From: Candidatus Aminicenantes bacterium
GTDB taxonomy: Bacteria > Acidobacteriota > Aminicenantia > UBA2199
Assembly: GCA_963770755.1 (NCBI GenBank)
Contig: CAVYQZ010000006.1
Coordinates: 196,818 to 260,817 of the forward strand
DNA: 64,000 bases
Direction of reading: 5' to 3'
Each line of letters opens with the position of its first letter. Within the stretch, counting starts at the first letter, position 1. The notes beneath the pieces were generated by a model. That model saw only the letters and a list, made by a program, of their open reading frames with translations. It was not told the origin of the DNA and made no database searches. This document shows, in pieces, positions 19,314 through 21,056 of the stretch. Both the position numbers and the translations under genes were made by a program.

Positions 19314-21056
19314 ATGTTCCGTATCCGAAAAATATACGATCTTCACACGCCCGGCAATCGGAAAGCGCTGGACCAGGCGCTGGCCATTCTGCGCAGCCAT
19401 TTTACAGCCGTGAAGCCGGAAAAGATTCATGAAATAACCGCCAGGATAGAAAACCCCCTCAAATATAAGTTCCAAGCAATTCTCTTTGTTGCCGAAGACG
19501 AAAAAGGCAAGGTTAAGGGATTCGCCATACTGCTGGCCGCCGCGGATCTTAAATTCGCCTTCCTGGATTTCATTGCCACCCGCAAAGGCATTCTGGCCAG
19601 CGGCATCGGCAGCGCCATTTACGAACGCCTCCGTGAGGAGGCCGAAGAAATGGGGGCCGTCGGCCTGTTTTTCGAATGTCTTCCGGATGATGAAACTATT
19701 TGCCGATTGCCCAAACTGATCAAGGAGAACAAGGCCCGCTTGAAATTCTACGAAAAATTCGGCGCCCGGCCCATCCAGGGAACCAAATACGAAATGCCGG
19801 TCAAGGAGGGTGATCTTTGTCCACCCTATCTGGTCTTCGATGATCTGGGCCGCGGCGCACCCCTGGCCCGCGATACGGCGCAAGTGATCGTGAAGGCCAT
19901 TCTGCAGCGCCTATATAGCAATTACTGTCCTCCCGAGTACATCCAGATGGTGGTAAATTCAATCGGTGACGATCCGGTCCGTATCCGGCCGCCGCGTTAT
20001 TCAAAGAAGAATCCTCCGAGCGTCGGAACGACACTGCGGATGAAAACCAGCCGCATCATGCTGGTGGTCAGCGAAGGCCATCACGTCCACCACGTCAGGG
20101 AACGCGGTTACGTGGAGTCTCCGGTGCGCATCGCTTCCATTCTGGTGGAGATCGATAAAACAGACTTCTTCGTCCGTGTTCCGACTGAGCCATACCCGGA
20201 AAAATTTATCCGCGATGTTCACAGCGGCCATCTCGTGGGTTTCATAAAAAAAGTCAGCAGGGAAATTGATCCCGGGACTTCCTTATACCCCTATGTGTTT
20301 CCCATCCGACACCCCGACCGTCCTCCCAAAGAGTTCTGGGTGACAGCCGGCTACTATTGCATCGACACTTTCACCCCGTTGAGCCGCTACACCTATCAGG
20401 CGGCCCGCCAGGCTGTGGACTGTGCACTGACCGGAGTTGACTTGCTACTGCAAGGCGAACCGTTGGCCTATGCGCTGGTACGCCCCCCCGGCCATCATGC
20501 TGAAAGTCGGGTCTTCGGTGGTTTTTGCTATTTCAACTCTGCCGCCGTGGCCGCCCAATACCTGTCCAGATTTAGCCGGGTCGCCATCCTGGACCTGGAT
20601 TATCATCACGGCAACGGCACCCAGGAGATTTTCTACCGGCGCAAGGACGTCCTGACCGTTTCGATTCACGGGGACCCCTCGTTTGCTTATCCGTACTTTA
20701 GCGGTTTCCGCAAGGAAAGGGGTTTGGGAAGCGGACTGGGATACAACCTCAACATCCCATTGCCGGAAATTCTCAGTGGAGTTGAATATCGCATGGCCCT
20801 GAAAAAAGCTCTGAAGCGTGTGGCCGATTTCCGGCCTGAATTCCTCGTGATCCCTTTCGGAGCGGATACGGCCAAGGGCGATCCGACCGGCACCTGGAGC
20901 CTGAAGGCAGCCGACTTCCATGCCAATGGCGTCATGGTCGGCGCCATGCGTCTGCCCAAGCTGGTGATCCAGGAAGGCGGCTACCGTACCCGGCAATTGG
21001 GGGTCAACGTGCTGGCCTTCCTGGAGGGCTTGCTCAAGGGTCGCAACGGGATTTAA
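19314..21056 (+). CDS. Fusion protein: N-terminal GNAT acetyltransferase domain + C-terminal histone-deacetylase/acetoin-utilization (HDAC/AcuC) family amidohydrolase
   Basis: GNAT motif A RKGILASGIGSAIYERL around residues 90-110; HDAC hallmarks PPGHHAE, GFCYFNS, DLDYHHGNGTQEIFY. Confidence 0.8.
   Translation: MFRIRKIYDLHTPGNRKALDQALAILRSHFTAVKPEKIHEITARIENPLKYKFQAILFVAEDEKGKVKGFAILLAAADLKFAFLDFIATRKGILASGIGSAIYERLREEAEEMGAVGLFFECLPDDETICRLPKLIKENKARLKFYEKFGARPIQGTKYEMPVKEGDLCPPYLVFDDLGRGAPLARDTAQVIVKAILQRLYSNYCPPEYIQMVVNSIGDDPVRIRPPRYSKKNPPSVGTTLRMKTSRIMLVVSEGHHVHHVRERGYVESPVRIASILVEIDKTDFFVRVPTEPYPEKFIRDVHSGHLVGFIKKVSREIDPGTSLYPYVFPIRHPDRPPKEFWVTAGYYCIDTFTPLSRYTYQAARQAVDCALTGVDLLLQGEPLAYALVRPPGHHAESRVFGGFCYFNSAAVAAQYLSRFSRVAILDLDYHHGNGTQEIFYRRKDVLTVSIHGDPSFAYPYFSGFRKERGLGSGLGYNLNIPLPEILSGVEYRMALKKALKRVADFRPEFLVIPFGADTAKGDPTGTWSLKAADFHANGVMVGAMRLPKLVIQEGGYRTRQLGVNVLAFLEGLLKGRNGI

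Follow-up and report, generated by a model that had tools for sequence, protein, structure and literature searches.

Introduction

In Bacillus, AcuA (a GNAT) and AcuC (a class I-like deacetylase) are separate proteins that are encoded in the acuABC operon next to acsA and that act on a protein lysine of acetyl-CoA synthetase. The substrates of ApaH-type enzymes (acetylpolyamine amidohydrolases) are aminoalkyl chains with a terminal N-acetyl group, which is hydrolysed, and with a positive charge farther along. The bacterial ApaHs ("cluster 4"), represented by Pseudomonas sp. PsApaH (PDB 9GKZ), Mycoplana ramosa APAH (3Q9B/3Q9C), Marinobacter msAPAH (6PHR), a Burkholderia enzyme (3MEN) and P. aeruginosa PA1409 and PA0321, are single-domain proteins of ~340 amino acids (aa). 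Here we describe a gene in which an enzyme of this type is preceded, in the same chain, by a 230-aa GNAT domain. The gene lies in a 64,000-nucleotide (nt) stretch of DNA, hereafter the window, from a Candidatus Aminicenantes bacterium (GenBank assembly GCA_963770755.1, contig CAVYQZ010000006.1, positions 196,818 to 260,817), and its coding sequence, taken from an open reading frame (ORF) list with an ATG start, occupies positions 19314..21056 of the plus strand, stop codon included, and encodes a GNAT-ApaH fusion protein of 580 aa. All positions below are those of the window and refer to the plus strand unless stated otherwise.

Opposed synthetic and hydrolytic activities in one chain are known from glutathionylspermidine synthetase/amidase, which acts on a polyamine amide, from SpoT and from PFK-2/FBPase-2. 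The folds of these bifunctional enzymes are unrelated to those of the window protein. Acetyltransferases of the GNAT superfamily and zinc-dependent deacetylases of the HDAC family are each well studied alone, and the conserved single-chain combination of the two is apparently uncharacterised in the literature that we searched. Both domains belong to known superfamilies and the architecture is already visible in automatic annotations, as in the names "AcuC-like enzyme/GNAT superfamily N-acetyltransferase" (JGI) and "histone deacetylase family protein" (NCBI). Full-text searches returned no paper on the fusion or on the operon described below, and the main text of a survey of bacterial deacylases makes no mention of GNAT fusions (PMC11532494).

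Results

An ApaH-type deacetylase makes up the C-terminal domain

The C-terminal domain comprises residues 247-580 (20052..21053) and is identified as a zinc-dependent deacetylase by PF00850, which spans residues 267-572 (E=6.1e-70), and by sequence and structure matches in the PDB. It therefore begins at about residue 247 and not at about residue 330, as an initial annotation of this DNA, made from the letters alone, had it; the motifs quoted there (PPGHHAE, DLDYHHGNGTQ and EGGY) are all present. Residue conservation, here and below, was read from an alignment of 74 species from many phyla. In all of them the deacetylase residues H394, H395, D427, D429, H431, N434, D518 and Y557 are invariant. 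The tandem catalytic histidines H394-H395 of PPGHHAE (20493..20498) align to the HH pair of the known ApaHs, the zinc ligands D429 and H431 (D-Y-H in DLDYHHGNG, 20598..20606) align to DVDYHHGNG of PsApaH, the third zinc ligand is D518 of GADTAKGDPTG (20865..20867), and the catalytic tyrosine is Y557 of the EGGY motif (20982..20984).

The best sequence relatives of the domain in the PDB are 9gkz, 6phr, 3men and 3q9b (phmmer, E 1e-60 to 1e-69). When the full-length model was compared with known structures by Foldseek, the first 16 places were taken without exception by ApaHs (target-normalised template-modelling (TM) score 0.82-0.89, 35-38% identity, E 1e-27 to 1e-29), and the next class, lysine deacetylases of the HDAH/HDAC6 type, followed at E ~1e-20 to 1e-21. 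The window protein shares with the ApaHs the zinc ligands, the tandem histidines, the asparagine of the charge relay, the catalytic tyrosine and the length of the L2 loop, or polyamine-specificity loop (PSL). This loop (residues ~325-348) aligns to the PSL of PsApaH with one 1-residue gap, and it holds an invariant arginine, R332, aligned to the dimer-forming R95 of PsApaH. The partner of that arginine in the PsApaH dimer salt bridge, D163, is replaced by R399, and an invariant glutamate, E397, adjoins the tandem histidines. A further difference is P524-T525-G526 (20883..20891), present in all 74 species, which is a family-specific swap for the gatekeeper motif ("PIS" in ApaHs, "PEG" in HDAC10) and aligns to "EDPISQF" of PsApaH. 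The role of the gatekeeper motif and the features of the PSL and of the L1 lid loop have been defined for the ApaHs (PMC11532494). Cluster 4 is the sole bacterial cluster with polyamine deacetylase activity, lysine deacetylases being placed in other clusters and AcuC in cluster 2c (Graf et al., 2024; PMC11532494). The C-terminal domain is thus of the ApaH cluster 4 type and not of the AcuC type; of the motifs that define cluster 4, it lacks PIS.

The N-terminal domain is a divergent GNAT

Residues 1-230 (19314..20003) form a GNAT domain, assigned from PF00583, from its predicted structure and from Foldseek matches. It consists of a core (~1-176), two conserved helices (186-200 and 207-216) and a conserved segment, DDPVR-R-PPRY (DDPVRLRPPRY). 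PF00583 scores 26.2 bits over residues 53-129, where its curated cut-off is 20.7 bits, and PF13508 reaches 25.6 bits, slightly short of the required 27. Residues 1-236 were modelled with AlphaFold on the basis of 21 homologues. The resulting model has a predicted local distance difference test (pLDDT) value of 91.5 and a predicted TM score (pTM) of 0.89. Compared with the PDB it gave 331 matches at E<=1e-3, and the 50 of these that were listed are all GNATs. The top matches are the histone acetyltransferases GCN5/PCAF (E ~2e-7, target-normalised TM ~0.75, 13% identity), with AAC(6'), PaiA and CBU0801 also found, and the best target-normalised TM (0.79, root-mean-square deviation 3.2) belongs to 2R7H. 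When the PDB was searched with a sequence profile of the domain, only weak GNAT matches came up (1vkc, 3pp9, 3ey5), which marks the domain as a divergent GNAT subtype.

The core of GNAT motif A, the pyrophosphate-binding loop G97-I-G99-S-A101 (19602..19616), comes after a strand at 81-89 and opens helix alpha3 (from 95/98 to 112) in the models; G97 is kept in 74 and G99 in 73 of the 74 species. The strand directly before motif A is FAFLDFIAT (81-89), and FAILLAAAD (67-76), which had been taken for it, lies farther upstream. The pair R90-K91, which had been read as the Q/R position of motif A, has non-canonical spacing and is conserved only in the Aminicenantes clade. Motif B follows as N139-x2-R142-L-x-F145-Y146-E147-x2-G150 (19728..19763), with R142, F145, Y146 and E147 in 74 of 74 species, N139 in 72 and G150 in 71, and E121 and D125 on strand beta5 are likewise found in all 74. 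Y146 stands at what we take to be the position where many GNATs carry their general-acid tyrosine, and E121, Y146, D125 and E147 are candidate catalytic residues. The N-terminal region is therefore a real GNAT, with invariant or nearly invariant cofactor-loop and motif-B residues, and not a non-catalytic extension of the kind that the initial annotation had weighed as the alternative. It most likely binds acetyl-CoA and passes the acetyl group to a primary amine.

A different role for this domain was considered, in which the GNAT serves in regulation or recognition, sensing acetyl-CoA or CoA or binding the substrate, and gates the deacetylase, so that the protein as a whole would be a regulated ApaH. 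Several features are consistent with such a role: motif A lacks a conserved Q/R, the Pfam score of 26 bits is modest, a separate small GNAT that usually stands alongside or is fused (see below) could supply the real transferase activity, and the domain is tethered directly to a shortened L1 lid loop, the loop that controls active-site access in ApaHs (PMC11532494). However, E121, Y146, D125 and E147, whose invariance was given above, are typical of catalysis and not of binding alone, and the mean pairwise identity of the N-terminal domain among the 74 species (53%) is nearly that of the C-terminal domain (63%), which indicates that it is not a decaying appendage. We therefore regard a purely regulatory GNAT as unlikely.

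The two domains are joined by a linker (residues 231-246, 20004..20051) that is variable in sequence and length, aligns with gaps and is modelled with pLDDT <50 at residues 232-244.

The protein does not correspond to AcuA/AcuC

The initial annotation had framed the fusion after AcuA and AcuC, and a likeness exists in that an acetyltransferase and an HDAC-family deacetylase of opposing chemistry are encoded together. This framing does not fit: the deacetylase is of the ApaH type, no AcuA or AcuC NCBIfam model matched the window protein, and neither acuB nor acsA lies nearby. The GNAT also has no match to AblB (TIGR03827) at E<=1. A reversible protein-lysine acetylation switch, with writer and eraser in one chain and analogous to AcuA/AcuC on acetyl-CoA synthetase, could still be imagined on other grounds, given that the best structural matches of the N-terminal domain are GCN5/PCAF histone acetyltransferases and that PsApaH and other ApaHs show some activity on acetyl-lysine peptides (PMC11532494). 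Yet the GCN5 likeness holds at the level of the fold only, at 13% identity, and the ApaH and lysine-deacetylase matches lie 6-8 orders of magnitude apart in E-value. No acsA/acuB context surrounds the gene, and the family's conserved neighbours, an aminomutase and Ddl-like ligases, work on small molecules. Taken together, a protein-lysine switch appears very improbable.

The fusion is widespread and under purifying selection

A search of 5.8 billion proteins returned at least 120 full-length homologues of ~576-640 aa and 55-92% identity, from Aminicenantes, Desulfuromonadales/Geoalkalibacter, Nitrospiraceae, Chloroflexota and others. When one genome per GTDB species was searched, loci encoding relatives were found in at least 600 species, and the best 80 of these match residues 1-576 at 51-58% identity. 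Carriers include Dehalococcoidales, Bacteroidales, Planctomycetota, Desulfobacterota, Alpha- and Gammaproteobacteria, Synergistaceae, Lentisphaeria and Thermoanaerobaculia. The single-chain fusion of a GNAT with an HDAC-family domain that had been read from the window is thus borne out by Pfam, by structure matches and by its recurrence in many phyla, with both motif sets intact and under strong purifying selection.

The GNAT subtype seems to be bound to this architecture. A profile of the N-terminal domain searched against 1.84 billion representatives matched 165 representatives (50%-identity clusters) at E<1e-30, and among the 12 of these that were examined there was no clear standalone N-domain family, the matches being the fusion itself, truncated or frameshifted pieces, or sequences ending at the linker. 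On these 12 of 165 matches the subtype would occur almost only in the GNAT-ApaH fusion. One homologue, P0147 (738 aa), has a deacetylase site that looks degenerate, with DLEGSHGNG for DxDYHHGNG and GGRDG for EGGY, and keeps both of its GNATs; judging by these substitutions, it may be a pseudo-deacetylase variant.

Orthologues are linked to an aminomutase and two ATP-grasp genes

ORFs were called and clustered in the 80 best genome loci, 59 of which had informative flanks. Three kinds of same-strand neighbour recur in the 80 loci: a radical-SAM protein of ~447 aa (38 loci), an ATP-grasp protein of ~335 aa (42 loci), usually in two tandem copies, and a GNAT of ~160 aa (18 loci). KamA-like and/or ATP-grasp genes lie within 7 kb of the fusion gene in 43 of the 59 informative loci (73%), and the fusion gene is solitary in the other 16. 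In these 43 genomes, from many phyla, the GNAT-ApaH gene belongs to a conserved, tight operon of five genes, the others encoding a KamA-like lysine 2,3-aminomutase, the two ATP-grasp proteins A and B and a small GNAT of the 2R7H type. Gene junctions are mostly -4, -1 or <30 nt, and the fusion gene is the last or an inner gene; examples among loci L005-L084 are L008 (~2900-8725), L029, L037 and L038.

The radical-SAM neighbour belongs to the KamA family. Its best model is TIGR03820 (AblA), at 474.6 bits against an equivalog cut-off of 525.4, and it scores 451.6 bits to the C. subterminale lysine 2,3-aminomutase 2A5H, with D293 and D330, the residues that in 2A5H hold the lysine epsilon-ammonium, both kept. 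The ATP-grasp proteins are distant relatives of D-Ala-D-Ala ligase (Ddl) and fall into two ancient orthogroups, with identities of 47% within A, 38% within B and 27% between A and B. The small GNAT is the orthologue of 2R7H (E=1e-38), a structural-genomics entry (Dde_3044, "putative D-alanine N-acetyltransferase") that is itself uncharacterised and corresponds to a partner of the family, not to the window protein.

In 17 of the 80 loci the fusion protein carries the 2R7H-type GNAT as a third, C-terminal domain, giving a GNAT-ApaH-GNAT chain of ~750 aa, and this is a Rosetta-stone link between the two proteins. ORFs of this kind, ~750-770 aa long, were seen in L045, L049, L052, L054, L070, L075-L078, L081 and L084, and also in P0125. 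In Geoalkalibacter the stop codon of the fusion gene lies within the start of overlap with another gene, which encodes a GNAT of 148 aa. In Geoalkalibacter halelectricus (L001) a GAF-PAS histidine kinase gene stands directly upstream of the fusion gene, and genes for RimB-like, 7TM-transglutaminase and ATPgrasp_ST proteins lie ~5 kb downstream (14511-17682).

The AblA/AblB osmolyte pathway likewise pairs a lysine 2,3-aminomutase of the KamA/AblA type with GNAT acetyltransferase. The AblAB system, however, has neither ATP-grasp ligases nor a deacetylase, the aminomutase of the present family falls below the AblA equivalog cut-off, and neither of its GNATs matches AblB, the operon's small GNAT having no match to TIGR03827 at E<=1e-3. 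A Na+ riboswitch upstream would speak for a function in osmolyte metabolism; when ten loci with the operon were scanned with Rfam, no riboswitch was found upstream of it. A role in defence is not indicated, since no PADLOC defence model matched.

Solitary and operon-linked copies are intermixed by sequence, as illustrated by the solitary copy in L014, which is 78% identical to the operon-linked copy in L032. We therefore treat them as one orthologous family with variable linkage. The notion of a self-contained switch, put forward in the initial annotation, is weakened by the finding that the orthologues mostly stand in an operon with an aminomutase, two ATP-grasp genes and another GNAT.

The window copy is solitary

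The copy in the window is solitary and monocistronic, and the copies closest to it among the genomes compared are operon-linked. No acuB, acsA, polyamine biosynthesis or polyamine transport genes flank it.

The protein might be a classical enzyme of polyamine homeostasis, with no tie to beta-lysine in this organism. Its GNAT would then act like SpeG, PaiA and BltD in acetylating putrescine, cadaverine or spermidine, and its ApaH domain would regenerate the free polyamine. The deacetylase is closest to enzymes proven on N-acetylputrescine, N-acetylcadaverine and N-acetylspermidine, the structural matches of the N-terminal domain include PaiA, and the window copy shares its solitary state with the 16 of 59 informative loci mentioned above. 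The intermixing of solitary and linked copies in one family that is linked to KamA and ATP-grasp genes in 73% of informative loci argues against this explanation, as do the missing polyamine genes in the flanks of the window copy and the gatekeeper, which is PTG in place of the PIS of known ApaHs. We consider plain polyamine homeostasis doubtful, and it is the alternative to which we would assign the greatest weight.

Start site, transcription signals and neighbouring genes

The N-terminus MFRIRKIYD agrees with the family consensus MFRIRRIYDD in the homologue alignment, so the annotated ATG is the correct start. A Shine-Dalgarno sequence, GGGAG (19302..19306), lies 7 nt 5' of the ATG. Farther upstream a scan found a sigma-70-like promoter candidate, GTGACA-N17-TAGAAT (19268..19296), with 10 of 12 matches. 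A useful comparison is the syntenic locus L003, from a Candidatus Aminicenantes metagenome-assembled genome (MAG), whose protein is 92% identical. Both promoter hexamers and the Shine-Dalgarno sequence are identical there, and the DNA farther upstream has diverged. Since shuffled sequences yield as many promoter-like sites as the region does, or more, the promoter candidate is suggestive only. Downstream, an intrinsic-terminator-like hairpin with a 13-base-pair stem and 9 GC pairs (21141-21169) is followed by GATTTTTCCT, the whole covering 21141..21179. The hairpin is not kept in L003, and it would therefore be strain-specific, if functional. Of the promoter and strong terminator that had been assigned to the gene, both are thus found by scanning and the promoter hexamers are kept in the relative, but the excess over shuffles is missing for the one and conservation for the other.

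The gene is monocistronic, as had been proposed, because the flanking genes are both on the opposite strand, and the same arrangement is seen in L003. Upstream, all on the minus strand, are genes for an SMC ATPase (14171-17656), a PDZ-domain protein (17779-18759) and a small hydrophobic protein of 118 aa (18793-19149), none of them related to acetylation or polyamines; this upstream synteny is common to GCA_016934745.1, a Candidatus Aminicenantes MAG. Downstream, also on the opposite strand, lie a DUF6429 gene (21276-21515) and ComEA-like genes. A GC-rich hairpin, GGCGCGG...CCGCGCC (21210-21248), with A8 before it on the plus strand, is kept in L003, and from its sequence it is read, on the minus strand, as the intrinsic terminator of the convergent DUF6429 gene. 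Opposite-strand ORFs at 19209-19883 and 20445-21128 overlap the fusion gene and are treated as spurious because they fall inside a coding sequence conserved at full length across phyla. From 22064 to 24527 and beyond, on the plus strand, are pseudopilin-like genes, for which the annotation of syntenic L003 gives N_methyl prepilin-type N-termini and a GspH-like gene, and among them is a gene for a 445-aa protein without an assigned family.

Discussion

On balance, we lean towards a bifunctional enzyme that acetylates and deacetylates small cationic amines and whose most likely tie is to beta-lysine chemistry. Of the two kinds of substrate that had been suggested for the window protein, polyamine-like small amines are favoured and acyl-lysine in proteins is disfavoured, given the ApaH-type domain. 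The substrates, together with the direction of flux and any coupling of the two sites, are what we infer. The operon linkage of the family to an aminomutase, two ATP-grasp proteins and a second GNAT makes beta-lysine, or an amide that contains it, the most likely substrate. Lysine 2,3-aminomutase makes beta-lysine, and N-epsilon-acetyl-beta-lysine equals N-acetylputrescine with a carboxymethyl group on C4, having the amide nitrogen, four carbons and the ammonium at the same spacing. With this spacing, an ApaH-type site is a plausible hydrolase for N-epsilon-acetyl-beta-lysine. Ordinary di- and polyamines would be the fallback substrates, and plain polyamines might be those used in lineages without the pathway.

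In the proposed mechanism, the GNAT would acetylate a primary amine using acetyl-CoA and the ApaH domain would hydrolyse an N-acetyl-aminoalkyl group, and two modes of working together can be envisaged. Both domains might make and break the same N-acetyl amine, in which case the protein would work as a homeostat, with acetyl-CoA supply setting the level of an acetylated compatible-solute-like compound. Alternatively, acetylation and deacetylation might concern different nitrogens in one pathway intermediate and would then serve as protection and deprotection around the ATP-grasp ligations.

Several observations weigh against the beta-lysine-linked bifunctional enzyme and should be taken into account. 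A tblastn search of the 64-kb window found no KamA-like, ATP-grasp or small-GNAT genes, so the beta-lysine link of the window copy is by orthology only, and this copy is 57% identical to its nearest operon-linked relative, such that the link could break down in this lineage. If the fused transferase and hydrolase share one substrate, they would run a futile cycle unless regulated, and no regulator is evident. The position of the canonical Q/R of motif A is occupied by S, G or R, and the full-length model (pTM 0.58, with a disordered linker) leaves the inter-domain geometry at low confidence. On the side of the deacetylase, the ApaH gatekeeper PIS is replaced by the invariant PTG and the region of the L1 lid, a beta-hairpin in ApaHs, aligns but is ~7 residues shorter than in PsApaH, with residues 263-267 at pLDDT <50; substrate specificity is therefore expected to differ from that of the characterised ApaHs. 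The activity of some ApaHs on acetyl-lysine peptides, mentioned above, also belongs on this side.

A more far-reaching proposal, which we put forward tentatively and hold to be possible rather than probable, is that the fusion is the acetylation/deacetylation module of an undescribed cross-phyla pathway. The aminomutase, the two ATP-grasp proteins, the 2R7H-type GNAT and the GNAT-ApaH protein would together make and turn over a new beta-lysine-derived N-acetylated amide. Its product might be a compatible solute or a polyamine-like polycation, and with writer and eraser fused, the pool could change rapidly from the acetylated, neutral form to the free, cationic one and back. The carriers would be anaerobic and sediment bacteria, e.g., Dehalococcoidales, Desulfobacterota, Planctomycetota, Bacteroidales and marine Proteobacteria. 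Ngg offers a parallel: a GNAT and an ATP-grasp there take part in the synthesis of N-acetylglutaminylglutamine amide, acetylation and amide ligation yielding a small N-acetylated peptide-like solute. The present family differs from Ngg in its combination of domains and in the amino acids concerned, and Ngg has no deacetylase.

The interest of the finding lies more in the family-wide operon than in the single gene of the window. Linkage to an aminomutase and two ATP-grasp proteins points to an undescribed beta-lysine-based metabolite in environmentally abundant anaerobes. Characterisation of the fusion protein and its partners would widen the known substrate range of ApaH-type enzymes and give a function to 2R7H, and the family would provide a natural model of how an opposed transferase and hydrolase in one polypeptide avoid futile cycling.

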